Below are positions 1 to 37,870 of a DNA stretch of 64,000 nucleotides, piece by piece. Position 1 is the stretch's first letter. Each line of letters opens with the position of its first letter. Under the pieces are notes generated by a model. The model worked only from the letters and a program-made list of their open reading frames with translations. It was not told where the DNA came from and did not search any database. The stretch lies in the sequence record MN445185.1. One strand, 5' to 3'. The translations under genes were made by a program, and so were the position numbers. The DNA is from Escherichia phage vB_EcoM_EC001.

Positions 1-984
1 TATTAAGATCTTAAAACGCGTGCGGGCGCGCGCGTGATCCTTATTAAGAGATCGTGATCGGACGGAAGACCGAGATCGGGTACCCTGTGTATTTTTTACG
101 TGGTTTCCCTATCGTGTGTTCAGACCACCACTCGATGTCCAAAAACCCATAGCTTCGGTGGTCGCCTCCCTGGTCGGTAGACTCTGACAAGTCGACCCAC
201 AACACCAACCCGTCCGGGGACGGATTTTTATTCCAACGACAAGCTCCACGAAAATCCCCGCAGAGGGACTCACTGCTGTGTGACTCACCGGCTCCTGGAC
301 GCCTACGCCTCGAGCCGGTAATTTTTTGATTACGTGAGTTTGTTGTTATATGCGAATAGCGATTGACCGCGCCAATGGTCCAATCACTTTTAAACCCTGC
401 ACGCTAGGGCTCCAAGTCCTGGGACTGATACCCAGGACGCTTTTTCGAAAATACCTACCGTGGTGTCTTCGACAAAGCGCAATCTAACACTGCGTGATTT
501 ATTATGTTCTGGAAAACTTTCGCCGTGGAACAGAACCGGTGAGCGTCGGCGGGGATTCCGACAATCACCACCCATTCAGGTACTCGGTAGATAACCGACC
601 TGCCGACGGTGCTACGTCGGGCGTAGTTCGGTTTGCGAGAGTGTCGAGAAAGTCGACTGCGCACCCATGACAAAATCCGAGTTGACCGTGGCAGCGCCAG
701 AGGACTGGGCAGCGGAGAGACGTCGTTGAACTTACCTCCGATAGTTATCGCTGATTCCGCTCTGGCGTCGGGCCAAAACTGATTCGAATTCGGCGTTGCG
801 TCGAAAAGGGGTCTGCGTGTAGAACCGCAGACTTGGGGGATAACTCCAAAGTGGGGTGATCGGATCTTGACGGCTCGGAACAGACGAGAGGGGTGGGTAC
901 TCCCGTTGTGAAACGCCAGTACCTGGCTGATTAAAATTTACAGATTCTGCGTGAGGTATGATAAACCAAACGGAGAATTAAACC

Positions 985-1560
985 ATGAACTTGTATCGCA
1001 TCGGGTTTTACCGGAACGAGGTACCAGAATCGGTTTTGGTTGTCTTAGCCGAAAACGAGGAGCAGGCCAAATCCTTCTGGCCGGTTAGCGCAGAGCGTAC
1101 AGCGGTTGCGTGCTGCTACGACGGTCCAGTTGCCGCAACGGATGTCGCTGCAGGCGTAGTCCTGAAGATGGGCCGATGGGAAGATTACTCCCATCCCGGT
1201 TTGGAGTTTGTTTCCGAACCTGCCAGACATTCCTGGGAATTTCCCTCAGGCAACACCGAGACGTATTTCGGATTTCAGGTTAAACAACCTTCGACGCTCA
1301 AACTGTACCTGGTGTACAGCGACGCCGCTACCGAAGACTACGTCGATTCCGGAATCATCGTCGGGGCAACAACCCCTGCTGCGGCATTCGCACATTGGGA
1401 CGGTGATAAACCCGGAATCGTTTCGGTCTGTGAGCTACCACTTGAAGCCGGTTTGGTTACGAACATCAAGTGTGAGCAAGGCCAGGAGCTGACTTGGATC
1501 CGCCAGGATTACCTGACGGAAACGACATTCGAGTACACACCGAGGAAGGTGACCCAATGA
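985..1560 (+). CDS. hypothetical protein (MNLY N-terminal family)
   Basis: 191-aa ORF; stop overlaps next start (ATGA). N-terminal about 35 aa resembles ORF 2283..2525 (MNLY...V.VV.A..EEQA). Confidence 0.5.
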   Translation: MNLYRIGFYRNEVPESVLVVLAENEEQAKSFWPVSAERTAVACCYDGPVAATDVAAGVVLKMGRWEDYSHPGLEFVSEPARHSWEFPSGNTETYFGFQVKQPSTLKLYLVYSDAATEDYVDSGIIVGATTPAAAFAHWDGDKPGIVSVCELPLEAGLVTNIKCEQGQELTWIRQDYLTETTFEYTPRKVTQ

Positions 1561-2048
1561 CGACGATAGCGTTCGACGGAAAAGTCTTAGCTGCTGACGG
1601 TCAGCTGACCCGCGGGTCGAATATCTGCAACCTGAACACCCAGAAGTTATTCATCTGCCCTTCTGACGAGGAATGGTGGATTACTGGTGAACGGATTGTG
1701 GCGTTCGGAGTAAGCGGTGACATCACAGGACAGTTGGCCCTGCTGGAAACGGTCCGCTTGAGACCCGGCTACAAGGGGTTAACACAAAGCTCGCAGTTAC
1801 CTGCGAAGATGGATTTTACTTTCCTGATGCTTTTGGCCTCAGGAAAAGCGATAGTCGGCGGAAAACGTGAAGACGACGTGACGTTGTGGTGGAGTGAAGC
1901 CACACCACCTCTGGCAACCGGAAGCGGTTACGAGTATGCGTTGGGTGCGATGAAGATGGGCGCGAATGCGGTTCGTGCTGTTGAGATTGCGTCCGAATGC
2001 GATATCTACACCGGTGGTGAGATTAGCACTTACGAACTACGGAGGTGA
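1557..2048 (+). CDS. HslV-like Ntn-hydrolase (proteasome-type threonine peptidase)
   Basis: Internal ATG with AGGAAGG RBS. Product starts M-TTIAFDGKVLAADGQ (Thr right after Met as in HslV TTIV..GDGQ); Lys about 30 residues in; GSGYEYALGA resembles the HslV GSGG..A motif. Confidence 0.6.
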   Translation: MTTIAFDGKVLAADGQLTRGSNICNLNTQKLFICPSDEEWWITGERIVAFGVSGDITGQLALLETVRLRPGYKGLTQSSQLPAKMDFTFLMLLASGKAIVGGKREDDVTLWWSEATPPLATGSGYEYALGAMKMGANAVRAVEIASECDIYTGGEISTYELRR

Positions 2049-2140
2049 ATCATGCGGGAGTCAGAAGCACGCAAGCTTGACCCCATCAATCGCCTGCGAT
2101 AACGGGGTAGCGCATCCGTATAAACACGTTCAAGAATTCT

Positions 2141-2216
2141 AGGAAAGTGACGCAATTGGTAGCGTACCGGTCTCCAAAACCGGCTGTTTAGAGTTCGAGT
2201 CTCTACTTTCCTGCCA
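2141..2216 (+). tRNA. tRNA-Trp (anticodon CCA), CCA end encoded
   Basis: Hand-folded 76-nt cloverleaf: acceptor aggaaag/ctttcct 7 bp, D stem acgc/gcgt, anticodon stem ccggt/accgg with loop ctCCAaa, T stem tagag/ctcta, T loop ttcgagt, discriminator g, CCA. Anticodon and T arms closely match E. coli tRNA-Trp. Confidence 0.8.
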
Positions 2217-2282
2217 CATTTAGCCAACAAGGCCATGATTCAAAGCAGAATGACACCGAATGTCTAACTGCGGAGAATAATC

Positions 2283-2525
2283 ATGAACTTGTATTTGCTA
2301 GAACGAACTGACGATATCGGGTATGATGAATTTGATTCCATAATCGTGGCGGCTCCTACGGAGCAAGCCGCGTGTGCAATTCCTCCCGACCGTGGTCATT
2401 GGATGGACTGCCGCTGGTTACCGAAAGAGCGCTGGGATGAAGGGCTTACCCTGACCGTTACTCTTATCGGTACTACGCACTATCCTGCTGGGACCGTCGT
2501 TCATGAATCGTTCAATGCTGGCTAA
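2283..2525 (+). CDS. hypothetical small protein (MNLY N-terminal family)
   Basis: 80-aa ORF starting MNLYLLERTDD; N-terminus similar to ORF 985..1560; followed by hairpin gtgggcttcggcccac. Confidence 0.4.
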   Translation: MNLYLLERTDDIGYDEFDSIIVAAPTEQAACAIPPDRGHWMDCRWLPKERWDEGLTLTVTLIGTTHYPAGTVVHESFNAG

Positions 2526-3300
2526 ACAGTGGGCTTCGGCCCACTAACCCTATTCGAGCCGTGATACTTACTCAGATTGTGCGGGTTGATGTCCCGCATG
2601 AGCCGGTAGCAGCTCAGACCTACGGTAGACCAATAAATCCGTAGCAGCCAGGTACACAAAGCACCAGGTCGCTTGTACAGGATGCTGGGTATCTGACCGG
2701 TCATAACCTCATTCGATACGAGACACGTTTATGCATGAAATACTCCAGTACATCAGGATGTTGATTTCCAACATCCGGTTCTGGGTATTCAGTCATGTTT
2801 GGTTTACAGGCGATGGGTTTTCCCGTAAGGGCCCCACTTACAGACTGGCGTCTCCACGACAACCGTCCCTAGGGGACAGGCAAGCACCGGCCCATTAAGC
2901 CGCTACGCTACGCCTGTAAATCCACAATCTGATAACCGAATGGGATTGAGTTCCCAGTGTTAGGGTGACTGTGTGTCACCGTAGGCGCGGTACCTCATAC
3001 GGCCGGTACGCCACGAATGTACGTGATAGCGGGTGGTGCTTGGAGACGCTAAGACCTGACCTTACGGACAGGCTCAGAAGAAGAAGTCCATCACCTGTAT
3101 TCAGAAATGAATTTAGGTTAATTATTGGAAGTGGCGAAATCACTTACGTGATAACTTAGTAGTATGCAACGAACAATACCAGAGTGACTTTACGAGGTTA
3201 CTGTGGTATATGTCGGTGCGCCGGGCAACGTGTTGCCGCAGATAAGCCCGAGGGAGCTGAGTGCACTAACACACGCCGGGATGCACCGGCACCTTACAAC

Positions 3301-3373
3301 GGCTTTGTAGCTCAGGTAGGTAGAGCAGCCTCTTCGAGGAAGGTCGCTGGTTCGAGACCGGTCAAAGCAAGAG
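3301..3373 (+). tRNA. tRNA-like element, possibly a degenerate tRNA or pseudogene (anticodon arm does not fold canonically)
   Basis: Canonical D arm gtagctcaggtaggtagagc and T arm gctgg-ttcgaga-ccggt, acceptor 6 of 7 bp, but only 19 nt between D and T arms so no standard anticodon stem-loop. Confidence 0.35.
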
Positions 3374-3828
3374 CAGCGAAGTTAGAGGAATTAACACCCG
3401 ACTCATAATCGGATATTTCGACGGTTCGAATCCCTGCCACTTGCTCGCCCTATTTGTGTTATCCTTATCCCGAAGGCATTCGAAATAAGACGCGTATCCA
3501 CACACGGGTCAAGGATAACACGAACCACTTCCGCGGTCACCGTGTCCATTGCCGCCTACCTGCATGGGCTGTCCTCCGACACGGTGACTTCGGGCCAAAT
3601 TACAGACCAGGGCCGTTTGGGTTTTTCTTACGCATCCGTCCAGAGCCACCTCGAGCCCTGGTTTGTTCTCCCTTTTCTGTTCCTAGTTAGCCAACTAAAT
3701 CAATTAAGCCTGGTGCGTTGCCCTGGGAACAGAAAAACTTATTCGGTTACACACCGAACCCACCCACGAGGGATATGTCGTGGACTACCAATAGAAGCAG
3801 CAATAGTAGAAGTAAGAAGGAAAGCAAC

Positions 3829-4797: not shown

Positions 4798-4825
4798 CAC
4801 AGATAGATATTACCTAAGTGAGATG
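4798..4825. promoter_or_regulatory. conserved promoter-like motif copy 1 (cacAGATAGATATTACCTAAGTGAGATG)
   Basis: One of 7 dispersed copies; closest match to copy at 58724; sits about 50 nt upstream of ATG 4875. Confidence 0.45.
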
Positions 4826-4874: not shown

Positions 4875-5825
4875 ATGTACAGACCAAGTAATCCTAGCGC
4901 TATTGAAGGATTAAACCAGGATGGCTTCAGCCTCGCAGAAGCAACCCGCATTCGACCTTTCTTACCTCGCAGATTCTTCCCTTTCGGTTCGTTATACAGA
5001 ACGAATTTCGACGCTTGGGAAGCGATACGTGCTGTAAAAGATGCACTACAGTACAAGAACTTCGAATTCCGATTTGTTTTCAAATGGGGCAACGGCGAAT
5101 TGCTCCACCACTTCGGATTCCAACAGAACGAGTTCATTGAGTATACCTCACCTACGTACCACACCAGGTTCTTAAGTATCGAATTCGTTCGCCATTTCGG
5201 CGATGCACTCTTTACGGAACGGGCTACAGATGAAAACCACGGACGTAGGCTGATGTTAACGAACGGCGCACTGCGCATCAAGATGAATCGTTTACGGGAA
5301 GCGTATAACCAGCTTATCAATCCTGAACCGGTAATGTTTCCAACTGTAGCTGATTTGAACATTACACCGCTCCAGTTACCTGTGGATGTGGATAGACCGA
5401 TTCTGGCAATCCACGCTCTCCAGGCAGGCTATGCAAACTGGTATAAAGAGCACAGTCTCCCGAACACCAGATTGAACATCGCACCGTTTGAGTTATGCCT
5501 GTTCTTAACGTTACGCAAACAACTCGAGCCAGAAAACTTAGACTTGCGTTATCTGGCTAAAACAGATAGCGGTAGTTACTACCCAACGACCTGGATGCTA
5601 GCGGCTGTACTACCCGGCGGTGAAATTATCGGTAACCCTGTCACCGATGTTCAACAGTTACCATCACCGTTAGCACCACCGAAGGATTCAATCTATCCAT
5701 ACGCTTCGTGGTACGCGAGCAGTATTGGCGTGAGATGGTTAATGTTACACGTTCCTGAAGAGGTCTATAATTTATTCCCGCATGAGCAATGGCTCCGTGC
5801 GTATGAAAATCGGTTTGGTTGGTAG
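4875..5825 (+). CDS. hypothetical protein
   Basis: 316-aa ORF between promoter-like motif and terminator. Confidence 0.65.
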   Translation: MYRPSNPSAIEGLNQDGFSLAEATRIRPFLPRRFFPFGSLYRTNFDAWEAIRAVKDALQYKNFEFRFVFKWGNGELLHHFGFQQNEFIEYTSPTYHTRFLSIEFVRHFGDALFTERATDENHGRRLMLTNGALRIKMNRLREAYNQLINPEPVMFPTVADLNITPLQLPVDVDRPILAIHALQAGYANWYKEHSLPNTRLNIAPFELCLFLTLRKQLEPENLDLRYLAKTDSGSYYPTTWMLAAVLPGGEIIGNPVTDVQQLPSPLAPPKDSIYPYASWYASSIGVRWLMLHVPEEVYNLFPHEQWLRAYENRFGW

Positions 5826-5835
5826 TCGATGCTTT

Positions 5836-5870
5836 TGAGGGAACTTCGGTTCCCTCTTTTTTTTCTTTTT
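5836..5870 (+). terminator. intrinsic terminator (gagggaacttcggttccctc plus T-run)
   Basis: Stem-loop plus long T-run; followed by conserved TTTTTTCACG...TCTTATAG module also seen at 11855..11900. Confidence 0.55.
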
Positions 5871-5907
5871 TCACGACTGCCTCAGAATCTTATAGGAGGA
5901 AGTTACC

Positions 5908-6324
5908 ATGATTACGCAGTGCTATTACCAGACGCAAGATTTATTTAAAGCATTGGAAGAAAATAAGTTACCCACGACTTTAAGACCGCAGTGCAGTTAT
6001 TCAAGAATGCTTGCAAGTGAGGTCTTTCCGGTGCTAATGCAGTTGCCTCAATTCCAACCGTGGCTCGACTCGCTAGATGTGGTAGATGTTGTGGCTATCT
6101 ACACTGGGTCAGACACACCAACAATAAATACAAGCGAGTGTTTATCCCGTAGCGAATCGTCGGCGTTAAATGAAATGCCGCAGCTAATGCCTTCTTTATT
6201 CGATTCGATGTGCGCTGCAGTTATGCAGAAACGACTACCTTATGAGGAAGTATTCGCCATTGTGTTAGACAGCATCCACGCAATGAATTATAAACACTAT
6301 AAAACCCTCGGAACCTTACACTGA
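5908..6324 (+). CDS. hypothetical protein
   Basis: 138-aa ORF with GGAGGAAG RBS. Confidence 0.55.
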   Translation: MITQCYYQTQDLFKALEENKLPTTLRPQCSYSRMLASEVFPVLMQLPQFQPWLDSLDVVDVVAIYTGSDTPTINTSECLSRSESSALNEMPQLMPSLFDSMCAAVMQKRLPYEEVFAIVLDSIHAMNYKHYKTLGTLH

Positions 6325-6391
6325 CTTTTTTACGGCAGGCACCTATCTTGTAGGGAGTCTGTGCTGTAATAGATTCCAAAGGAGATGCTCG

Positions 6392-6781
6392 ATGAAAAAC
6401 AAACTGCGTCCGCTGGACGTGATTATGGCGCATCCGGATACCCTCAAGAAAATTAAAGTGGTCAACGAACTTGACCGTGGTCTCCTGGATACAATTCAAT
6501 GGGGTTTTACTTTCCACCCCGATGAAGAGAACAACACGCGTCAATTAGATGTCTGCGACGGTGTAGAAATTGATTGGTCTTCTAACGAAGGCTTCAACGA
6601 TGTCGTCGATTATGTCAAACAAGCCACCGTTCCACCTGTGTTTCCCGTAGCGGGTTTAGCGGAACACACAATTTCTCTCCGCCGACTGGTTAACGCTCAA
6701 CCGGAAATCGTGCGTGAAGGTGAGGCGTGGACGTCAGGTATTACCCATCATCTTAAGGATGTGCTGGGTGTTGCCGGTTAA
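6392..6781 (+). CDS. hypothetical protein
   Basis: 129-aa ORF, AAGGAGA RBS, ends at bidirectional terminator. Confidence 0.55.
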   Translation: MKNKLRPLDVIMAHPDTLKKIKVVNELDRGLLDTIQWGFTFHPDEENNTRQLDVCDGVEIDWSSNEGFNDVVDYVKQATVPPVFPVAGLAEHTISLRRLVNAQPEIVREGEAWTSGITHHLKDVLGVAG

Positions 6782-6833
6782 AAAAGAAGAAGTACCTCTA
6801 CTTGCGTAGAGGTACGGAATCTTTCTTTTTTTG
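6781..6833. terminator. bidirectional intrinsic terminator
   Basis: A-run, hairpin gtacctctac-ttgc-gtagaggtac, T-run, between convergent genes. Confidence 0.6.
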
Positions 6834-7646
6834 TTACGACTTGAAGCGTCCACCGTTCATGTAGTTCCAACGGTTTCCGATGTTGTCGTTGTGGACCAGA
6901 CAACGCTGCATTTTCGGCAAGGTGTCTTCGAACATTTGACCTGCGTCCGAGTAACCTTCAATAACGTTTCTGAAGGCACCGAACTCCATACCATTTTCCA
7001 GTTTACCAGAGTCCATGTCGAAGATCATGGTGTTGTAAATATATTGCTTAACAGCCATGACTGCCAGCTCACCTACAACCGGATAGAATGCTGGTTTGAT
7101 TTCGTTCATCTCCTGGGATAGTTCGTACTTCACCACGAGTTTGGTAGAGTAAACGAACATGCCTGGGTCTTTGATACGAATGGTATTCGGACCGAGCACT
7201 TCGACTTCTGGTGAGGCGATGCGCGGCATCGCGGATTGACTATCAACCACTTGTTGAGTGGACGCCAGTACGCCAGAGGTGGCACCGTCCAGATATGAAC
7301 CTGCTGGAGGCATGGTGTACGCCTGTCCGGCAACGGGTGTTACAGAAATGTGGGCATCCAGAATAGGACGACCGCCTGTTTTGATGTCGTCGAGATAATA
7401 CACGCGACTGAAATAATCTTGCGTGTCGTTATCCCAAGGGACACCTTGCAAATCTACTTCTTGATACTGCCCCATTCTCGAGATTTCAGGGACCAGAATC
7501 TCACGAATAACACGTTGTTGGATTTCGTTATCTACAGAGCTTGCAATTCCCAGTAACTTGAGGTTTTCTGGAACAAAAGCCGCCTGTAGAATCGGGGCAG
7601 GGATATGCTGTCTGATTTTACGCAGACAGTAGTCGATAACATTCAT
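6834..7646 (-). CDS. hypothetical protein
   Basis: Track ORF 6834..7676 begins with TTG; in-frame ATG at 7646 is preceded by AGGAG at correct spacing; 270 aa. Confidence 0.65.
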   Translation of the reverse strand: MNVIDYCLRKIRQHIPAPILQAAFVPENLKLLGIASSVDNEIQQRVIREILVPEISRMGQYQEVDLQGVPWDNDTQDYFSRVYYLDDIKTGGRPILDAHISVTPVAGQAYTMPPAGSYLDGATSGVLASTQQVVDSQSAMPRIASPEVEVLGPNTIRIKDPGMFVYSTKLVVKYELSQEMNEIKPAFYPVVGELAVMAVKQYIYNTMIFDMDSGKLENGMEFGAFRNVIEGYSDAGQMFEDTLPKMQRCLVHNDNIGNRWNYMNGGRFKS

Positions 7647-7809
7647 TCTAAGGCTCCTATGAAGCTCGTAGGACAACTCATACCATCGGGTAATGCTATC
7701 CCATTACCTGACATTAAAATACGTTTTACGACCTTTATGTGCGCACCATACTCGAAGAAATTTTGCATAGATATTATCTTCGTGAATTATCCTTAAGGAG
7801 CATTTCTCG

Positions 7810-8130
7810 ATGACGCGCATGTTCTTTAATTTCTCTCCAGGGACAAATGAACAGATTGTGCCTGCGGACATGTTACTGTGCGCGATACAAGAAGTTATTT
7901 ATCCCGGCACGCATGAGTTTCCACGTGAGTGGACACGCATTGCCGAAAGTTATTTTGGCACGGAAGCGTGGTTTGTTATTTCGGCGTTGGGCCGAAACCA
8001 TCGCTATCCCTTTCATTACAAAAATGGAGTTGTGCAAACGTGGTCAGAATATACCTCGAACCAGCTGCGGTTCATTCTAGCTTCTGGGGGCCTGTCGATG
8101 CTTCCCAGTACGCTACCGCTCTGCGGATGA
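7810..8130 (+). CDS. hypothetical protein
   Basis: 106-aa ORF with TAAGGAG RBS; stop overlaps next start. Confidence 0.5.
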   Translation: MTRMFFNFSPGTNEQIVPADMLLCAIQEVIYPGTHEFPREWTRIAESYFGTEAWFVISALGRNHRYPFHYKNGVVQTWSEYTSNQLRFILASGGLSMLPSTLPLCG

Positions 8131-8690
8131 GCCAAAAAGAACGCGAGATGTTAACTGTACAACTGTTACACACTGCGCTCGAAGATATCTTTTACTCCGT
8201 TCCGGAAATGCCTAATGCACGTATGGAACCTTTGCTGGAACCTTATACTGACGCTTTTAATCTCACGATGATGTTGGTGGCTGACCAGATCATACTTCCA
8301 CCGAAAACAGTTCCTGTGGAACGTACACACGTTTCCAGTGGCGGTTTGGGTGCCCCGGTTAATAAGACGAAAGAGACCGTAGCGATTTTACGTTCTACCG
8401 AATATCTTATCGGATTGGCATTCGAAGACTGTTACAACAGTTTCCTGGACAGTATCCATGCACTTGTGGAGAATGCTGTGAAGGCCGCCAAACACCCGTT
8501 TAATCGTTATGCGACGATTAAACTGGAACCACACATAACCCGTCGTGGGCAGGTGCAATCTCTGGAGTTACAAATTGGAGAAGACATCAGATTCATCCAC
8601 TACCGCCAATGCTTCCCAAACAAACGATATCGTCCGTCTGGTACTGATCGATCACATCGCCTCGACGGCATACGTCAGGATATTGAATGA
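8127..8690 (+). CDS. hypothetical protein
   Basis: Internal ATG (MSQKEREML) of track ORF 7929..8690; upstream part of that ORF is Cys/Trp-rich and overlaps 7810..8130, so judged non-coding. Confidence 0.5.
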   Translation: MSQKEREMLTVQLLHTALEDIFYSVPEMPNARMEPLLEPYTDAFNLTMMLVADQIILPPKTVPVERTHVSSGGLGAPVNKTKETVAILRSTEYLIGLAFEDCYNSFLDSIHALVENAVKAAKHPFNRYATIKLEPHITRRGQVQSLELQIGEDIRFIHYRQCFPNKRYRPSGTDRSHRLDGIRQDIE

Positions 8691-8703
8691 CCCCAGCGAC
8701 ATC

Positions 8704-9012
8704 ATGTTCAGCATGTATGATGTTAATACGGGGTTGAAGCATATCATTCTCTGTATGCTCGAATACATGATTCCGACATTTACAGAACACGGTACGTGGG
8801 ACGTAGAAACAGTCTCACTGATTGTTAGGTGTTATCGTCCCAGAAGTCATTCGCGGGAAATCCACACCATCGCGTCACACGTTCATCGTGCTATCTGTGA
8901 GGAAATGGGCATTCCTCCAAAAGGGTATCGGTATCATTATAATCAAGCAGACAGAATTCTCCGTTTCATTCCACGTAAGGTAACAGATGTCTATGATGAC
9001 GGTTTATACTGA
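8704..9012 (+). CDS. hypothetical protein (start uncertain)
   Basis: First ATG downstream of the stop of the preceding gene within track ORF 8545..9012; true start may be upstream non-ATG. Confidence 0.4.
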   Translation: MFSMYDVNTGLKHIILCMLEYMIPTFTEHGTWDVETVSLIVRCYRPRSHSREIHTIASHVHRAICEEMGIPPKGYRYHYNQADRILRFIPRKVTDVYDDGLY

Positions 9013-9394
9013 GTTCGTGCGATTGACTTGCCGACTCACCGCACTCGTCAAAGAGAATCTCGGCATCGATTACCAGGATGCTGCGGTAGAGCTTGACGAC
9101 TATATCGAGCAAATTGTTCGGTTGCATGTTCTGCGGAAAAAATATGGCGTTATCGATAGCATGATACGTCAGTTCTTTATGGAGTATGTTCACGATAACC
9201 CAATCATTACCCCAACCACGTCGGCAAAATACTGGGCTCTTTGTCGATTTGAGTTGTTGATACGGGACACCGATTGCATCTGGCAAGCAATCGACGAGGA
9301 CATGACTTTTTTACCACAATCCGACTTTCTCCTCTGGCATGTAGGAGACGGTGTCTGGAAAATGTTAACTACAGGGGTTACTTACAATGATTGA
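8987..9394 (+). CDS. hypothetical protein
   Basis: 135-aa ORF in tightly packed operon-like array. Confidence 0.5.
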   Translation: MSMMTVYTEFVRLTCRLTALVKENLGIDYQDAAVELDDYIEQIVRLHVLRKKYGVIDSMIRQFFMEYVHDNPIITPTTSAKYWALCRFELLIRDTDCIWQAIDEDMTFLPQSDFLLWHVGDGVWKMLTTGVTYND

Positions 9395-9896
9395 GCGATC
9401 TCATTTTTATATCCCAGGCTATCAGTTATTGGCTGGGCCGTTAACGGAGTTTTCGCCAAACGATGTGCTCCGCGAAGTGAATGACGATTTGAACTCGATA
9501 ATCAATACCGCCATGAGCTTCGTGGAACGTGGAACCATTGGTAGTGAGTTAAAGTTTATGATGAACAATACCTTTGGGTTTGTTTCTCGTACACTGAATG
9601 CGCACGGCGTTGTGTTGGAAAATGAGCAAGTAATCACTTACGGCACCGCAATTCAAAACATCGGTCGTGCGTATATGACCGCCGTATCGCAGTCTCCTTA
9701 TTGGTTTACTCACTACGGTCGTTGGGTCGGTGCACAATACACAACGCGCAATCCGGCGGATGTCGAATTCTTATTAGACTATAACGGTGGTGATAAATTC
9801 CCACAGTTTGCCAGCCAGGAAGCGTACGAGCGAATCACCCCACAACTTCTGCCTGTTATCGATTTGCTTATCGGTAATCTCGGAGGTCGTGTATGA
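9387..9896 (+). CDS. hypothetical protein
   Basis: 169-aa ORF overlapping neighbours by a few nt. Confidence 0.55.
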   Translation: MIERSHFYIPGYQLLAGPLTEFSPNDVLREVNDDLNSIINTAMSFVERGTIGSELKFMMNNTFGFVSRTLNAHGVVLENEQVITYGTAIQNIGRAYMTAVSQSPYWFTHYGRWVGAQYTTRNPADVEFLLDYNGGDKFPQFASQEAYERITPQLLPVIDLLIGNLGGRV

Positions 9897-10381
9897 GCGT
9901 TCTGTTTGATGTGGCGGATATTGCGAACCAATATAGCGCGACTCGGTTTTACGAGCATGTTCGTGAAGCGGCATTGCGTGTACTGGAAGCCAGTAACCTG
10001 GAGATCGATGAAACACAGATACGTGATTTTTATCAACGTTTTGCGTTTGCATATATCATCGGTGTGAAAACTCGTGACCCTTCGACGATGGTTGATTTGT
10101 TACAGGAAGACACGCTTGAACCTCTGGGCAATTGGGAGTTGGTGTCCGATGGTCTGTCCGTTGACCAGTTCGCTAAGGAAACGTCTGTCGATACGACGTT
10201 TCTGGCAGCACAAGGTTCGCCCGAACAACATCAAGCCGCCTTCGGCGCTGCGGTAAGTTTGCTGGCCGAAGAGTTAACAAACTTAACTGGTTTTGCTGGA
10301 CTGATAGAGTCGCTGTATCCGGGGCGATATCAAACGTATGTAGGTGATAGTTTTAACGATGTGGTGTTAATCTGCGAATGA
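9893..10381 (+). CDS. hypothetical protein
   Basis: 162-aa ORF, start overlaps previous stop (ATGA). Confidence 0.55.
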   Translation: MSVLFDVADIANQYSATRFYEHVREAALRVLEASNLEIDETQIRDFYQRFAFAYIIGVKTRDPSTMVDLLQEDTLEPLGNWELVSDGLSVDQFAKETSVDTTFLAAQGSPEQHQAAFGAAVSLLAEELTNLTGFAGLIESLYPGRYQTYVGDSFNDVVLICE

Positions 10382-10809
10382 AACTGTACATGACCATAGG
10401 CGAAGTCTTCAAATATGAGTCGTTGTTGGCACGGGCCGAGATTGCTGATACTAGCGAGATCGAGCCCGCTGTCGCTTATTTGTTTCTGGCCAGTTACGCC
10501 GAATTAACGGTTCGTTCTATTGTTAATGGGCTAGGTAAGGGTAAGAACTTTCTTACTTTTATTCCCCCAGACCCTGCGTTGATACTGGAACAGTTGAGCG
10601 GGATGTGGGGTACTGAAAAGGTGCTGCCTCTAAACTGCTACAGCATGAGCAGTGGGATTAAGGATGATGTTCGGTTCTATGAAATCCTTTCCGTGATAGA
10701 ACGTGTGTGGGGCATGGCTGGCTTGACTCCAGAAGACGGAGCAAAAAAGACAAAGGTTTCACTCCTTATGAATGAAATTGGCAACGCACTCATCTGTGTT
10801 GAATGTTAA
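10378..10809 (+). CDS. hypothetical protein
   Basis: 143-aa ORF, ATGA overlap with previous gene. Confidence 0.55.
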   Translation: MKLYMTIGEVFKYESLLARAEIADTSEIEPAVAYLFLASYAELTVRSIVNGLGKGKNFLTFIPPDPALILEQLSGMWGTEKVLPLNCYSMSSGIKDDVRFYEILSVIERVWGMAGLTPEDGAKKTKVSLLMNEIGNALICVEC

Positions 10810-10818
10810 GGAGTACGA

Positions 10819-11418
10819 ATGATCTACAAGGTGATCGCCAACCACTTGATTAATGTGGACTTGGGGGTCGTGGGGTATCTTCCGGACGGTATGCGGTTTT
10901 TGGATTTGGTGGTTGACACCGTAGTCCGCCTACCGCGTATCACCGTGGAGATACCCGTAAAAGAATTGGACCAGGACGAGATGCACGAACTTATACGTGA
11001 AACGCTGACCAGCTACACGTACGAGTTTCGTTGCATGTTACCTCGCACCGACCTTACGTTCTTGCACGACTTCTTTACGTTACTGACTGACGAGTACCGT
11101 CGGTGGAAGTTTAATGTTGCAATGGAAGCCAGCACTGAATCACATTTTAACGGGCTGACACCATTGTTAGATTTAGCGTTGATGTACAAAGAGCAAGACA
11201 GCTCACACTGGGCCACGCTCAAGCACTATACGTTGGATCTAATGGCGACCGCCGTAACGGAGGCAGTTATGGTGCATTATGTTGAGCCGGTGAAGATGTT
11301 CTTAGAGGCGCATAATGGCGCTATCCGTACGTTGGTTCTCAAGGTGGACTTCCCGAAAACACCAGTGACCAATGCTTTGGATATGAGGCTGCTTATTGAT
11401 GTTCCTGAGGAGGAATAA
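10819..11418 (+). CDS. hypothetical protein
   Basis: 199-aa ORF with TAAGGAG RBS. Confidence 0.55.
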   Translation: MIYKVIANHLINVDLGVVGYLPDGMRFLDLVVDTVVRLPRITVEIPVKELDQDEMHELIRETLTSYTYEFRCMLPRTDLTFLHDFFTLLTDEYRRWKFNVAMEASTESHFNGLTPLLDLALMYKEQDSSHWATLKHYTLDLMATAVTEAVMVHYVEPVKMFLEAHNGAIRTLVLKVDFPKTPVTNALDMRLLIDVPEEE

Positions 11419-11828
11419 TGTTCGATTTACGCACACTGGTCGCTGGGCAAAAAGTTAACATTGTTTACGACACCCCTTTGAAAGGGCAAGAGACGCGTGT
11501 AATTATTCTGGCAACCGGCGTTGGCTATGAAATGGCCAAAAGCTATATGGATGTGATGGCGGAGCAGAAGAATATCTACTCATCCATCGTCTCTCAGCCA
11601 GAAGATAACGTGAACAAATACACGTATCTGATTTTCAAAGGTGTTGACGGCAAACCCAAAGTCGCTGCCGATGCCTGGATTCGTGATGTTCAGATTATCG
11701 AAAACACGAAGGTGCGTTTCACCGTCACTCTGGATAACAAACAGGAGATTGACGACCTTAAACGCGCCCTGGCTGCCAATGGTTTCAATGATGTCGATTT
11801 TGAAATCGTTGAGAGCATTGCCGGTTAA
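11418..11828 (+). CDS. hypothetical protein
   Basis: 136-aa ORF, start overlaps previous stop; followed by terminator. Confidence 0.55.
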   Translation: MFDLRTLVAGQKVNIVYDTPLKGQETRVIILATGVGYEMAKSYMDVMAEQKNIYSSIVSQPEDNVNKYTYLIFKGVDGKPKVAADAWIRDVQIIENTKVRFTVTLDNKQEIDDLKRALAANGFNDVDFEIVESIAG

Positions 11829-11834
11829 AGTAAT

Positions 11835-11869
11835 CCCACTCTTCGGAGTGGGTTATTTTTTTTTCTTTT
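11835..11869 (+). terminator. intrinsic terminator (cccactcttcggagtggg plus T-run)
   Basis: Hairpin with TTCG loop and T-run; followed by TTTTTTCACG...TCTTATAG module. Confidence 0.55.
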
Positions 11870-11919
11870 TTCACGTATCCCGCAAGTCTTATAGCTGAGT
11901 AAAAACCAAGGGGCCAGAC

Positions 11920-14211
11920 GTGGACTACAATTCACCATTTCGTCTTAGTCAAGACGAGTATCATCGCGACATTGACGTTATCGATGCGTACTACGAACAA
12001 CTGGCGCTCTACATTCATACCGTCACCAACGGGAAATATTCTTTGGAGTTCTGTCGACAGCAGGTCGAAGAAATGTTCCAACCTGGTGGTGAGTTAGTAC
12101 ACGAATTCCCCGTGTGTAAGATGTGGGTGCGCAATCAAAAGACCGGCGATCGCGAAGAAAAATACACCACGGTAGATAAACTGTTCCGTACAGTGATTGA
12201 TAAGCAGATTATTTCTGCACCGTCGCTGACCTTTTATCTGCCTGAGCACGTCAAGCGCTCTAAGCTTGCTGAATTTACCGCAGAGAACGTGCGTAAGCGT
12301 GCGGTTGTTAAGAAAGAGATGTACGCAGCAGGTGCTGCGGGTAATGAAGTTCTGCGTATTAACAAAAAGAACGAACAGAACGCTGTTAAGACGTTGAACA
12401 ACGGGATGTCGGGTGCATTCTCATCACCGTACACGGTAATCTTTAACCAGTCTTCGCACTCTGTATTGACGTCAACCTGCCGTACGGCTACATCGTTCGG
12501 TAACGCGGGCAACGAACGTCTACTGGGCGGTAATCGTCACTACGACACGCCGTCCCGTGTTATCGACCACTTACTGTCTATTGGTACACTGACTAACTTT
12601 GCTGAGTTCAAGAAGTGTATGGAACTCTATAACCTCCACTACCCAACAGTGGACGAGGTTATGGAAGTGGTTATGTACTCTGCAGAGTTTTACTTCCGTA
12701 ACGACGAAGGGCTGGAGTTCATTCGTCACTACGTCGGTAATTGTAGCCCGCTGGTACGTGCAGCGTTTGTCTACATGGGTGACTTCTACCACCTGGCGAA
12801 ATACAACGATGAATTCATGCGTGGGTTTATCGGTGCGCTGATTGCCGAGGAGATGGAAGACGAGATCACCGATTGGGATGCTGCTGAGCGCTCTATCGAC
12901 GGTGACATGCAGATCATTATCTCGCAGTTCCGTACTGATATCGTGCCGTTAGGTAAGTCGTTCTCTGACGTTAAACTCAAAGACGAAAACACGAACAAAG
13001 CGGAACCGTGGGATAAGCAGGAAAAATACAAAGAGCTGATTCGCTCAGCTGTGTATCTGCAGAAAACCATCGGTAAGTACGCGTGCTTGATTCGTAATAT
13101 CCTGACTACCAAAAACCTGCCGATTAACATTGCCAGGATGCCTGACGTGGTTCGTCGTGTCGGTGTGGTATCTGATACCGACTCCACGATGATGACTGCA
13201 CAGTGGTGGGCACAGTGGTATACCGGTCAACATTACGGTCGTGAAGCTACGCGCGTATCGGATGCGATGATTTATATTGCAACCCAGCACTTACGTCATC
13301 TGATGGCGAGCATGTCGGCGAACATTGGCGTGGCGAAAGAGCGTTTGTTCTTGTACGCAATGAAGAACGAATTTAAGTTCGACTCCTTTGCGTTAACCAC
13401 AAAAGCAAAACACTACTTCTCCATCATCACTGGTCAGGAAGGACAATTGAAGTCCGACCCTGAGTTAGAAGTTAAAGGTGTGTCTTTACGTACGTCAAAC
13501 ATACCGCCTGTGGTCATGAAAGAGTTCAAACGCACGATTAAAGAACTCTGTGAGATTGTAGCGCGCGGCGATAAGATTAAGATTCTGCCTCTGCTGGAAA
13601 AGGTTGCTGCAATTGAGCACGTTGTGGTGGACTCTATTCGTGCTGGTAAAGCAGGCTACCTGAAAACAACCAACGTCAAAGACCGTAGTGCGTACTCTGA
13701 AGATGATGAAAAGAGCTACCACTACCACCGCATGTACAACGCCATCTTTGGACCGAAGTACGGCTACCTGGACGAACCGCCTTATGATGCCGTGAAGCTT
13801 CCGGTAAACCTGGAGAACAAAACAGCCGTTAAAGAGTGGCTGGAAAACATTAAAGACCCGATGATTAAGACCACCGCAACACGGTGGTTCGAAGAAAACA
13901 ACTATCGTACCTATCGTACTCTGATACTGCCAGAGTTCCTGGTGGAAAACTTCGGTATTCCGCCGGAGCTGATTGATGCTGCAGACACACGTCGAAGCGC
14001 ATTCTCCACAGTAGAACCTTACTATCACATTCTGGAATGTCTGGGTGTGTTCATGATGGACAAGAACAGAACTCGTCTGCTTTCGGATTACTACGGCGAA
14101 TCTGTAGACTCGGTCAAGGAAGAATTAGGTAGCGGTGAGTACGTTAAGAAATCTGAACGTGATGGAGAGGAAGAAGATGGGGAAGAAGATGGGGAAGAAG
14201 CGGAGGAGTAA
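11920..14211 (+). CDS. family-B DNA polymerase, C-terminal fragment (fingers, motifs B and C, thumb); acidic C-terminal tail
   Basis: GTG start with AAGGGG RBS. Lys/Arg-rich helix then KTLNNGMSG fits motif B (K-x3-N-x3-G); VVSDTDS fits motif C (DTDS); ends EEEDGEEDGEEAEE. No exonuclease or motif A, which lie in minus-strand ORF 43654..45438. Confidence 0.6.
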   Translation: MDYNSPFRLSQDEYHRDIDVIDAYYEQLALYIHTVTNGKYSLEFCRQQVEEMFQPGGELVHEFPVCKMWVRNQKTGDREEKYTTVDKLFRTVIDKQIISAPSLTFYLPEHVKRSKLAEFTAENVRKRAVVKKEMYAAGAAGNEVLRINKKNEQNAVKTLNNGMSGAFSSPYTVIFNQSSHSVLTSTCRTATSFGNAGNERLLGGNRHYDTPSRVIDHLLSIGTLTNFAEFKKCMELYNLHYPTVDEVMEVVMYSAEFYFRNDEGLEFIRHYVGNCSPLVRAAFVYMGDFYHLAKYNDEFMRGFIGALIAEEMEDEITDWDAAERSIDGDMQIIISQFRTDIVPLGKSFSDVKLKDENTNKAEPWDKQEKYKELIRSAVYLQKTIGKYACLIRNILTTKNLPINIARMPDVVRRVGVVSDTDSTMMTAQWWAQWYTGQHYGREATRVSDAMIYIATQHLRHLMASMSANIGVAKERLFLYAMKNEFKFDSFALTTKAKHYFSIITGQEGQLKSDPELEVKGVSLRTSNIPPVVMKEFKRTIKELCEIVARGDKIKILPLLEKVAAIEHVVVDSIRAGKAGYLKTTNVKDRSAYSEDDEKSYHYHRMYNAIFGPKYGYLDEPPYDAVKLPVNLENKTAVKEWLENIKDPMIKTTATRWFEENNYRTYRTLILPEFLVENFGIPPELIDAADTRRSAFSTVEPYYHILECLGVFMMDKNRTRLLSDYYGESVDSVKEELGSGEYVKKSERDGEEEDGEEDGEEAEE

Positions 14212-15531: not shown

Positions 15532-16599
15532 TTATTTTTCTTCTAGCTCTGTCGTCAACGGGATAATCAAATCCCGTTGGATAAAGTTATAGAAGGATTT
15601 GGTCAAACGTGTGAGGACTTTAGAGTCCACATAACGCGCCAAATCAACCAACATCGTACGTTTATGCTTTTCCATATTCCCCTGGTTGTATTGAAGACAA
15701 AACAGTGCCCAGTACCAGTTCACCATGTTCTGGTGCCAGGTGTTCTGCAGTGTTTGACCTGGTTCTCGAAAGACAATCAGTTCCAGTGCTGTGTGGCCTT
15801 CTTCATCAGGGTGTTGGAAGAACAATGGGATGTTGTTTAAGACTTGTCCCGGTAACGGGTTGGCAGCCAGTAGTTTACTACGGATGCCTTTTGCGTGCTT
15901 CACAGCTAAAGCTTGAAGCGGTGGAACAGGAATGACACGTAATGTTTCATCCGGTTCAATCTCTTTCCCAAAGGCTATCGCACGATGTATATTTACAAAG
16001 GCGATATCCATGTAGCTCGGCAACATGCGAGAGATCACATGTCGTTGGAGATACACAGGTGTGGCAATAGGTTCGGTACCGCGACTGTAGTGCTGCTGAC
16101 CTTTGACATATTGCCAAAGCAAAGCAACCAGGTTGATTTCGATCACCGTAACACCTCGGGGCCGTCCGTCACCGAACTTCCAATTGAGGTTGGTATACTC
16201 ATGGTAGAGGTAACGGGCGGGGGTGTAGTCGCGGAACGAAAGGTCTGGATTTACTGGGCGGGCTACGAGAGAGATTACCTCATCTTGGCCCTGGATAAAC
16301 TTGCTATTAAAGATTTGACCGTACTCACCAACAGACGTCAAGCGTAAGGCGTTACCGATCTGAACAAGTTTGCGACGGCAAGCCCATTCGATGTCTTCGT
16401 ACTCTGGTTCACCGGCATAGCCGATGGCAGACAACACCTGTTGCAACAAATGGCCATTACCAGCACTGCGATTAAGCTGTTCGAAGTAGTTGCGTATACG
16501 CTGGCTGTTGTTTTTTACGTGAGCCGCTAATGTTATAGCGGAGGGGTCCGTGCTGTGACCCTTTATGGCCACTTGGTTTAACTCGGCTTGGCTGAACAT
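15532..16599 (-). CDS. hypothetical protein
   Basis: Track ORF 15532..16620 starts at GTG; in-frame ATG at 16599 (MFSQAEL) is preceded by TAAGGAG; 355 aa. Confidence 0.65.
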   Translation of the reverse strand: MFSQAELNQVAIKGHSTDPSAITLAAHVKNNSQRIRNYFEQLNRSAGNGHLLQQVLSAIGYAGEPEYEDIEWACRRKLVQIGNALRLTSVGEYGQIFNSKFIQGQDEVISLVARPVNPDLSFRDYTPARYLYHEYTNLNWKFGDGRPRGVTVIEINLVALLWQYVKGQQHYSRGTEPIATPVYLQRHVISRMLPSYMDIAFVNIHRAIAFGKEIEPDETLRVIPVPPLQALAVKHAKGIRSKLLAANPLPGQVLNNIPLFFQHPDEEGHTALELIVFREPGQTLQNTWHQNMVNWYWALFCLQYNQGNMEKHKRTMLVDLARYVDSKVLTRLTKSFYNFIQRDLIIPLTTELEEK

Positions 16600-25250: not shown

Positions 25251-26885
25251 ATGAAAATTACGAAGATTAAAGACCGGATGACAATCGAGCATCACGGTCA
25301 AGAGGTCTCATTTATTGGCTTACGTTATCGGAAGGATAACAACGCACCCGACTACATCACTGTTAAAGGTAAACAGATTGCACGCGACAACATTCTCTTC
25401 ATGGAATTACAACGCGTGTGGGATTATTTAACGCCAGACGAACAAGATGAACTGTTCATGGCGTATCTGATGCTGGACGAGCTGGCAAACGAATCGACGG
25501 AAACGCAGCGTAAGCACATGCCGAAGATTGTGCAGACGATTGCGAAGTTCCACAAGGCCGAAGTGTATCGTAAGCTGTATCCCATCGATAAGCTGTGGAT
25601 TCCGCAGAACATGGAAGATACGCACGATGAAATGAACAGTAATTATCCGGAAGCGATGACGTACATTCGTCCGGACTATTACGAGTTGTTGATACTGGTC
25701 CTGATGATTAAACCGTATATTCCGGTGTTCCTTACCATGGGGACGTTCCCGATAGGTAAGAACTTGCCAATCGAAACACATCGGAAAATGGTGTACAATC
25801 TGACATACTGTCTGGAGATGCTTCAAGACACAGAAGTCATGTCTTTACCTGCTATTCCGAAACTGCGTGGGTTCCTACAGACAGTGATGGAAAAGGTAGA
25901 AAAAGAACTGGCAAACAAAGGTACGAACAGCACCAGTTTGTCGGTACTGGCTACGGTGCGGGGCTATGGCACGGATATGATGGAAGATTATATCCTGGCG
26001 TATGCTATTATTAAATTGTTGGCTGTCCGTGAAGTCGGTGGTGAATTACCGGTTGAAATCATGGTTAACAACAATATCGTCACCGGCATGTATTTTCTGG
26101 TTAAACAAGAGATTGAAACAGGTTTTGCAAACAAAATCTCTAACCAGCCGGTGCTGTTGAAAGCGCATCCAGAAAGTGTGGTATTCAATGGCGAAAAGGG
26201 CAAGATAAACGCCATGGATTTGGTGCAGGCACGTTCTCCTGCCCAGATGAAAGAATACGTCCGTACCGAGTACGTATTTAAAGAATACCGCTCTTTCTTG
26301 AAAACAATGCGTCTGGATAATGCCGCTCCAGCAGATGTTAAGTTATTGATTGATTCGCAACTGGCAACACACGACGGTCCTGTCTATACATTGCACGAAT
26401 GGTTAGTCGCATTAGCACTCCATCGTAGCGCGCATTATAAGACGTATACTGAATGTGGACCAGAAGCGTTTCGCTACGGTATGGCGTTGGCGCAGGCAAC
26501 TTATCTCAATTATGGAATGTATGACGTTGCGCAACTGTTAAGTTGCAATATGGTGCGTTCTGAGATGTCTGCCGGTTATGCAGCCGATCCAATTCGATCT
26601 GAACTCAAAGCAGATTTAGATAGATATTATCTTCAGGAGTATCGCAACCCGCGTAATCTCGAACCGCAATCTACACCACGGGAATCACTGACCTTGTTAC
26701 ACAAGGATCACATCAACCCGTATCTGTTCCATCTCAGGGCTACACCAGAAGCAGCTGCGCTGCTGAAGTGTGAGACGGATCAGCCAAACTATATACCTCA
26801 CTTGTCACTGCACAATAGCCTGGCGGAGTTTATGGTGTTGAATGCACGTCGCAAGTTAGAAGAAGTTGAATGGTTTAATTCTTAA
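25251..26885 (+). CDS. hypothetical protein
   Basis: 544-aa ORF downstream of promoter-like motif. Confidence 0.65.
   Translation: MKITKIKDRMTIEHHGQEVSFIGLRYRKDNNAPDYITVKGKQIARDNILFMELQRVWDYLTPDEQDELFMAYLMLDELANESTETQRKHMPKIVQTIAKFHKAEVYRKLYPIDKLWIPQNMEDTHDEMNSNYPEAMTYIRPDYYELLILVLMIKPYIPVFLTMGTFPIGKNLPIETHRKMVYNLTYCLEMLQDTEVMSLPAIPKLRGFLQTVMEKVEKELANKGTNSTSLSVLATVRGYGTDMMEDYILAYAIIKLLAVREVGGELPVEIMVNNNIVTGMYFLVKQEIETGFANKISNQPVLLKAHPESVVFNGEKGKINAMDLVQARSPAQMKEYVRTEYVFKEYRSFLKTMRLDNAAPADVKLLIDSQLATHDGPVYTLHEWLVALALHRSAHYKTYTECGPEAFRYGMALAQATYLNYGMYDVAQLLSCNMVRSEMSAGYAADPIRSELKADLDRYYLQEYRNPRNLEPQSTPRESLTLLHKDHINPYLFHLRATPEAAALLKCETDQPNYIPHLSLHNSLAEFMVLNARRKLEEVEWFNS
26612..26636. promoter_or_regulatory. 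promoter-like motif copy 5, internal to the 3-prime end of CDS 25251..26885
   Basis: AGATTTAGATAGATATTATCTTCAGG about 260 nt upstream of the next gene. Confidence 0.35.
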
Positions 26886-37810: not shown

Positions 37811-37870
37811 TCACGTTTTGGGTGTATATTGTGTATACACCCAACCCCTAATTTCAAAAGGATTATTACG

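Follow-up and report, generated by a model that had tools for sequence, protein, structure and literature searches.

Intrinsic terminators abutting candidate phiKZ-type middle promoters at two repeated intergenic modules of an SPN3US-like jumbo phage

This study addressed whether an extended sequence that recurs behind two terminators of Escherichia phage vB_EcoM_EC001 (MN445185.1) marks a promoter class of its own. The stretch of DNA analyzed, hereafter the window, comprises 64,000 nucleotides. Its region 5000-13000 exhibited 96-98.7% identity over the full length to jumbo phages of the SPN3US group (Seoulvirus), and its DNA polymerase gene was 100% identical to the counterpart in vB_EcoM_Lh1B, with equal coordinates. 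The window is that of an SPN3US-like jumbo phage, from a Salmonella/E. coli phage group, and a relative of phiKZ. Phages related to phiKZ form a nucleus-like compartment and are transcribed independently of the host RNA polymerase (RNAP); they encode two multisubunit RNA polymerases of their own, of which the virion enzyme (vRNAP) serves the early genes and the non-virion enzyme (nvRNAP) the later ones. The complete 240-kb SPN3US genome, joined from five pieces, was used for comparison. The genes and terminators at the two sites are as follows.

4875-5825, plus strand: open reading frame before the first module, with its stop codon 12 nt before the hairpin
5837-5856, plus strand: intrinsic terminator hairpin GAGGGAAC-UUCG-GUUCCCUC (terminator scan; -14.1 kcal/mol, z -4.5)
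5857-5871, plus strand: T8-C-T6 tract, the terminator U-tract and also the A/T-rich flank upstream of the putative promoter box
5908-6324, plus strand: 138-aa gene starting at ATG 5908 (phrog_9322, function not assigned)
11418-11828, plus strand: SH3DP-domain gene (PF20287, an SH3-fold domain associated with phage DNA polymerases)
11835-11852, plus strand: intrinsic terminator hairpin CCCACUC-UUCG-GAGUGGG following gene 11418-11828 (-14.8 kcal/mol, z -5.9)
11853-11871, plus strand: TTA-T9-C-T6, U-tract and T-rich flank, read from the sequence
11920-14211, plus strand: divergent family B DNA polymerase gene starting at GTG 11920 (PF20286, E 4e-284)

The initial annotation had described the same extended sequence downstream of the terminators at 5836 and 11835, and the repetition proved exact. 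The 19-mer TTTTTTTTCTTTTTTCACG was found at 5857-5875 and 11857-11875 and nowhere else in the window, where no further copy appeared even when 3 mismatches were allowed; 0.09 occurrences were expected in shuffled sequences, and none of the 100 shuffles reached 2 copies. The two 19-mers lie exactly 6000 nt apart (5857 and 11857), which we take as a coincidence. The second element, TCTTATAG, occurred exactly only at 5888-5895 and 11887-11894 in the window. With one mismatch, however, it was found 26 times against 35 expected, and because this is no enrichment the 8-mer alone is unremarkable. The spacings were less regular than proposed: the gap between the two elements is 12 nt at the first site and 11 nt at the second rather than about 15 nt, and the distance from TCTTATAG to the start codon is 12 nt for ATG 5908 and 25 nt for GTG 11920 rather than about 20 nt. 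The related sequence reported ahead of 6392 is present as TCTTGTAGGGAG at 6346-6357, upstream of ATG 6392.

A motif search across the complete SPN3US genome returned the literal module at only two places, both orthologous to those in the window. The 19-mer plus TCTTATAG was rejected as the definition of a promoter class, being limited to two sites in the window and in SPN3US. In its literal form, the motif thus showed the outcome, confinement to these two sites, that the initial annotation had named as speaking against its proposal, and we therefore searched for what in the module is general. A recent duplication of one intergenic region was also rejected as the origin of the repeat: the two sites are unlike in hairpin, spacer, and leader, and separate orthologues of each are present in other genera.

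The first half of the module is accounted for by termination. Both copies are placed directly after a UUCG-loop terminator hairpin, and both sites display a stable GC-rich hairpin, a T8 or T9 run, and a position after a stop codon; no shuffle of the 5837-5856 hairpin folded as well as the native sequence. The T-run is an ordinary terminator U-tract. In its GC-rich stem, UUCG tetraloop, and run of 8-9 U, this half of the module matches rho-independent terminators, yet a terminator covers only the T-run and leaves T[C/T]ACG-N14-TATA unaccounted for. At the polymerase locus, the SH3-fold gene (PF20287) is separate from the polymerase gene (PF20286), and the proposed terminator-promoter junction sits between them.

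To identify the general part, all 141 intergenic regions of SPN3US were listed in gene orientation. Many of them contained a T-rich stretch ending in TTACG, followed exactly 14 nt on by TATG, TGTG, or TATA. When TTACG-Nk-TRTR was counted in SPN3US, k=14 yielded 34 sites and every other k from 8 to 21 yielded 3-11; in intergenic DNA, the corresponding counts were 20 at k=14 and 0-5 at other values, and in the window alone, they were 10 at k=14 and 0-5 elsewhere. A position weight matrix (PWM) trained on the 20 intergenic SPN3US sites revealed enrichment of T from -30 to -23, the box from -22 to -18, and T-R-T-G from -3 to +1, with little information between. Scanning SPN3US with this matrix produced 31 matches of at least 14 bits, compared with 2.85 in Markov-1 random genomes. 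Twenty-seven of the 31 were intergenic, intergenic DNA being 6.4% of the genome, and most had a start codon in the same orientation 13-77 nt downstream. Eight intergenic matches lay outside the training set, with about 0.18 expected by chance, and carried variant boxes (TCACG, TTACA, TTGCG, and ATACG); the orthologue of the polymerase site was among them (14.8 bits, rank 29 genome-wide). A two-block scan with a variable spacer found 32 matches with N14 (28 intergenic) and 4 with N15 (2 intergenic).

About half of the family sites are not preceded by a terminator, and those lacking a hairpin carry AAAAT or AAAT before TTACG in place of the T-run. The annotated genes behind the sites include those for DNA polymerase, a DprA-like protein, thymidylate kinase, an SMC/SbcC-like protein, an exoribonuclease, and MazG. 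These are replication and nucleotide-metabolism genes, and the set thus fits genes of the replication phase. The informative parts of the module are T[C/T]ACG and TATA(G), which are variant forms of the two boxes of TTACG-N14-TRTG, a bipartite motif that recurs about 30 times in the genome. The elements assigned on this basis are listed here.

5871-5875, plus strand: TCACG, putative upstream promoter box, a variant of the consensus TTACG
5876-5890, plus strand: 15-nt spacer, one base over the 14 of the family
5891-5895, plus strand: TATA(G), putative start-site box, predicted 5' end A5894 or G5895
5894-5899, plus strand: AGGAGG, Shine-Dalgarno sequence of gene 5908-6324, overlapped by the TATA(G) box
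6330-6352, plus strand: TTACG-N14-TGTA(G), canonical family member, 40 nt upstream of ATG 6392 and containing TCTTGTAGGGAG
11871-11875, plus strand: TCACG, putative upstream promoter box, predicted -22 to -18
11876-11889, plus strand: 14-nt spacer of fixed length, its sequence varying between genera
11890-11894, plus strand: TATA(G), putative start-site box, predicted 5' end A11893 or G11894, 26-27 nt upstream of GTG 11920

At both module sites the upstream box reads TCACG, one mismatch from the TTACG of the approximately 30 sites in the same genome, and a TCACG box is also found at other members of the family, such as window position 37811. The two module sites are ordinary, slightly off-consensus members of the motif set, with C for T at -21 and A for G at +1. 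The polymerase site (11871-11893) is a good member. The 5871-5894 site, which scored 16.7 bits in the two-block scan and is one of the 2 intergenic N15 cases, is off-register, a weaker family member whose status and predicted activity are less certain. The SPN3US orthologue of the 6330-6352 site scored 19.2 bits. Further starts of this type are predicted in the window at 16537, 24427, 37833, and 59576. The proposal that the repeats mark a different promoter class therefore holds as a prediction of terminator-promoter junctions, but the T8CT6 run and TCTTATAG are not what defines the class.

Orthologous sites in other phages revealed which parts of the junction are maintained. At the polymerase site, the hairpin, TTTCTTTTTTCACGT, and GTCTTATAGC were unchanged in five Seoulvirus and Erskinevirus phages, with a spacer that varies. 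TCACG was invariant at this site in Seoulvirus, Erskinevirus, and Machinavirus, and the Derbicusvirus phages Phobos and CR5 carried TTACG and TTTAG at the same position. The TTACG of Derbicusvirus shows that the two forms of the box can replace each other at an orthologous position. In Huxley (Machinavirus), Phobos, and CR5, a hairpin of different sequence was retained, together with T[C/T]ACG, a diverged 14-nt spacer, and T[A/T]TAG. Thus, genera beyond Seoulvirus (four in our count; Erskinevirus, Machinavirus, and Derbicusvirus are those named here) maintain T[C/T]ACG-N14-T[A/T]TAG behind a hairpin that changes in sequence, and the spacer length of 14 nt was kept in all 8 phages aligned.

At the first site, TTCACG and the N15 spacer were retained in the Seoulvirus relatives, and phiEaH2 carries TTACG-N14-TATAG at this position. 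The sequence TATAGGAGG (5891-5899) was invariant in 5 phages; it shares positions with the ribosome-binding site, however, so that its invariance does not count as separate support for a promoter. Among 8 orthologous pairs of sites from SPN3US and phiEaH2, in which the boxes had guided the choice on the SPN3US side and the phiEaH2 side was independent, 69 of 72 box positions were identical, compared with 61 of 112 spacer positions (Fisher p = 1.6e-10). The spacing peak of phiEaH2 itself was weaker, with 5 occurrences of TTACG-N14-TRTG in 100 kb against 0-2 at other spacings.

The closest known counterpart is the middle promoter of phiKZ, for which the consensus 5'-AAanTTACc-3', centred at about -24, has been described, some examples also having TATG in the right position at the start site (PMC4666361). 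The mapped middle promoter P78M, upstream of phiKZ gene 78, reads AAAATTACC-N14-TATG in the phiKZ genome, and its TTACC-N14-TATG is equal in geometry to TTACG-N14-TRTG. Measured against the N14 of P78M, the box-to-start distance is N14 at the polymerase site and N15 at the 5871 site. The two systems also share an A/T-rich flank, the TTAC core, a nucleus-forming jumbo phage with two phage RNA polymerases as their setting, and replication-phase genes downstream. The phiKZ middle-promoter consensus is reportedly credited to Ceyssens 2014 as well. The base after TTAC differs, however, being G here and C in phiKZ, and TRTG at the start site belongs to the present consensus, whereas phiKZ shows such an element at some promoters only. 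The consensus of the present family, known from sequence, is much sharper than that of phiKZ and is accompanied by a genome-wide spacing peak. When simple patterns were applied to 150 kb of phiKZ, no genome-wide spacing peak for TTAC-N-TATG was observed, which is consistent with the weak middle consensus of that phage; the published consensus and P78M are thus what links the family to phiKZ. Upstream of the phiKZ polymerase gene, at a distance of 129 nt (record position 40449), TTACA-N14-TGTA is present together with a hairpin and a T-rich run.

Other late and middle transcription signals of jumbo phages resemble the family in part. The late promoters of phiKZ consist of TATG with G as +1 and are recognized by the nvRNAP (PMC4666361); the final base of T-R-T-R was accordingly taken as the predicted start. 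They share the start-site element T-A/G-T-G/A at -3 to +1 but, unlike the sites described here, have no conserved upstream box. Adding a middle box to a phiKZ late promoter lowered nvRNAP transcription 3-fold, and middle promoters are not transcribed in vitro by the purified enzyme (PMC4666361). In phiKZ, the middle motif accompanied 33 primary 5' ends recovered by ONT-cappable-seq (PMC10914365). The AR9 late promoter AACA-N6-TA/G is likewise a short bipartite element ending at the start site and is used by a jumbo-phage nvRNAP; it differs in that its upstream element lies at -11, has another sequence, and needs uracil in the template strand. Our search of the literature on the SPN3US group returned no promoter, start-site, or time-course study, only a statement that the early motif is predictable in every such phage.

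The initial annotation had also set the repeats apart from a palindromic motif of the window, and this distinction was borne out. Matches to AGATAGATATTATCT with at most 2 mismatches were absent from 5836-5905 and 11835-11920, and the module was accordingly rejected as a degenerate form of the early motif. On the plus strand of the window, such matches were located at 4804, 7768, 16655, 16748, 25205, 26621, 30364, and 58729, the one at 26621 falling within a coding region. The palindromic motif, (c)AGATAGATATTATCTnnGTGA, is of the extended AT-rich type expected for the early promoters of the virion RNAP in phiKZ relatives. Early vRNAP promoters (here cAGATAGATATTATCTnnGTGA) are likewise phage-specific, intergenic, and sometimes placed after terminators; they differ in consisting of one extended AT-rich near-palindrome around -10. 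Upstream of several SPN3US genes (e.g., ACQ60_gp141 and gp167, at approximately 109900 and 92550), an early-type promoter is followed 15-30 nt on by TTACG-N14-TATG. Such tandem early and middle promoters could provide continuous expression, as described for AR9.

Further elements were observed upstream of genes. A conserved leader element, (A)ATCGACTAT(T/C)A, occurs downstream of early promoters and ahead of the ribosome-binding site, for example at approximately 4860, 25240, and 58780 in the window, and in many SPN3US early leaders; TCGACTA was 6.8-fold enriched in upstream regions. An extended ribosome-binding context, CTTAAGGAG(T/C)AT, was found genome-wide in SPN3US, where CTTAAGG was 11-fold enriched upstream of genes. 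The sequences AGTATGA and ACTATGA occur without a TTACG box before SPN3US virion genes (e.g., the tail sheath gene ACQ60_gp010, gp096, and gp004), and TATGAG, TATGAC, and ACTATG were 4-6-fold enriched upstream of SPN3US genes. By eye and by k-mer counts, AGTATGA and ACTATGA look like phiKZ-type late TATG promoters.

Members of the bipartite family were also found in two further settings. In the gene-poor left end of the window (1-3400), there are five sites of the middle type, from which starts are predicted at 118, 352, 960, 3166, and 3212. This end also holds a tRNA-Trp (2141-2216) and a second tRNA-like element (3301-3370; Rfam 33.6 bits, no call by ARAGORN). The sites with predicted starts at 3166 and 3212 lie 90-135 nt upstream of the latter element, an arrangement that recalls the tRNA of 201phi2-1 driven by a middle promoter. 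At SPN3US record position 173097 (ACQ60_gp074) and phiEaH2 record position 96485, the annotated reading frame of both phages begins with the ATG of a TTACG-N14-TATG site. This arrangement implies either a leaderless or 5'-truncated mRNA or a wrongly annotated start codon.

Taken together, the best explanation is probably that at each site an intrinsic terminator directly adjoins a middle promoter of the phiKZ type. We weighed this against the reading that the sequence behind the terminator is a conserved 5' leader with translation signals and contains no promoter, in which case the downstream genes would be expressed by partial read-through from early promoters. An early-type promoter does lie upstream at 4804, the T-run is a normal U-tract, and TATAGGAGG overlaps the Shine-Dalgarno sequence, but read-through would leave unaccounted for both the exact 14-nt distance that separates T[C/T]ACG and T-R-T-R at some 30 intergenic positions and the conservation of boxes and spacing while the spacer drifts. 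It would also not explain the half of the family that has no preceding terminator, and we consider it unlikely. An endoribonuclease that cuts read-through transcripts at TRT^R could create apparent middle 5' ends, and a study of RNAP localization listed such processing as a possible origin of these ends in phiKZ (PMC10612078), where the question arises because the nvRNAP ignores middle promoters in vitro. In the present family, however, the motif often starts inside the U-tract of a strong terminator, so that little RNA would span it, and a spacer of fixed length and free sequence suits protein-DNA recognition better. Folding of the predicted 5' leaders revealed no excess structure (z 0.6 and 0.0), which also counts against processing; an RNA structure or operator in the leaders found no support in the same values. 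The 33 middle-motif 5' ends of phiKZ came from a method that enriches primary transcripts (PMC10914365). On all these points together, processing appears very improbable.

The uniqueness of the literal module to two sites raised a further reading, in which TCACG and (G/A)TCTTATAG(C/G) form a private sub-class read by a dedicated regulator, such as an operator controlling polymerase expression. The invariance of GTCTTATAGC in five Seoulvirus and Erskinevirus phages, which exceeds what the family needs at -7 to -4, is in its favor, but the polymerase locus is more conserved overall (82% compared with 74-78% at other loci). Phobos and CR5 carry TTACG and TTTAG at this site, the TCT is not conserved at the 5888 site (TAATATAGG and GTTATAGG), and TCACG is not private to the two modules, as its presence at window 37811 demonstrates. 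A private sub-class is thus quite improbable. Reading TTCACG as a -35 and TATAGG as a -10 hexamer of a host sigma-70 promoter has next to no probability: each hexamer matches at 4 of 6 positions, a superficial likeness, but the spacer of 14-15 nt falls outside 16-18 nt, and phages of the phiKZ group are transcribed without the host RNAP. This reading was rejected, as a consensus scan returned no site at either locus and 18 sites overall, compared with 22.5 in shuffled sequences.

If each site is indeed a terminator abutting a middle promoter, the GC hairpin with its UUCG loop and U-tract would end the upstream transcript independently of any factor, and the end of the T-tract would run into the upstream box of the adjoining phage-specific promoter. 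This promoter would comprise an A/T-rich flank, T[T/C]ACG at approximately -22 to -18, a sequence-free 14-nt spacer, and T-R-T-R, whose last base is the predicted first nucleotide of the transcript (G at most sites and A at these two). Transcription would thereby resume just ahead of the 138-aa gene (start codon at 5908) and of the DNA polymerase gene (start codon at 11920), with predicted leaders of 14 and 27 nt, respectively. By analogy with phiKZ, we infer middle timing, and the enzyme involved is presumably the phage nvRNAP together with a factor reading the TTACG box.

A more specific proposal is offered tentatively, as possible rather than probable: the SPN3US-group promoter would be defined by an A/T-rich flank, TTACG spanning -22 to -18, a spacer of exactly 14 nt, and a TRTG start, an architecture that implies a dedicated box-reading factor. 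If this proposal is true, the factor would be a middle-specific sigma-like subunit or a DNA-binding protein that recruits the nvRNAP. To our knowledge, no nucleus-forming jumbo phage has so far yielded such a factor, and the approximately 30 near-consensus sites, combined with an amber-mutant genetic system, would allow it to be found, with the sites supplying defined templates and bait DNA for the search. The matter bears on the question, raised in phiKZ, of which enzyme or factor transcribes the middle genes.

For the two module sites themselves, the result is modest. The wider family has the same architecture as the phiKZ middle promoters in a far cleaner form that is kept in several genera, and it may therefore provide a sequence definition for predicting transcription units in these phages. 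The junctions may also serve as compact terminator-promoter cassettes for engineering phages of the SPN3US group.
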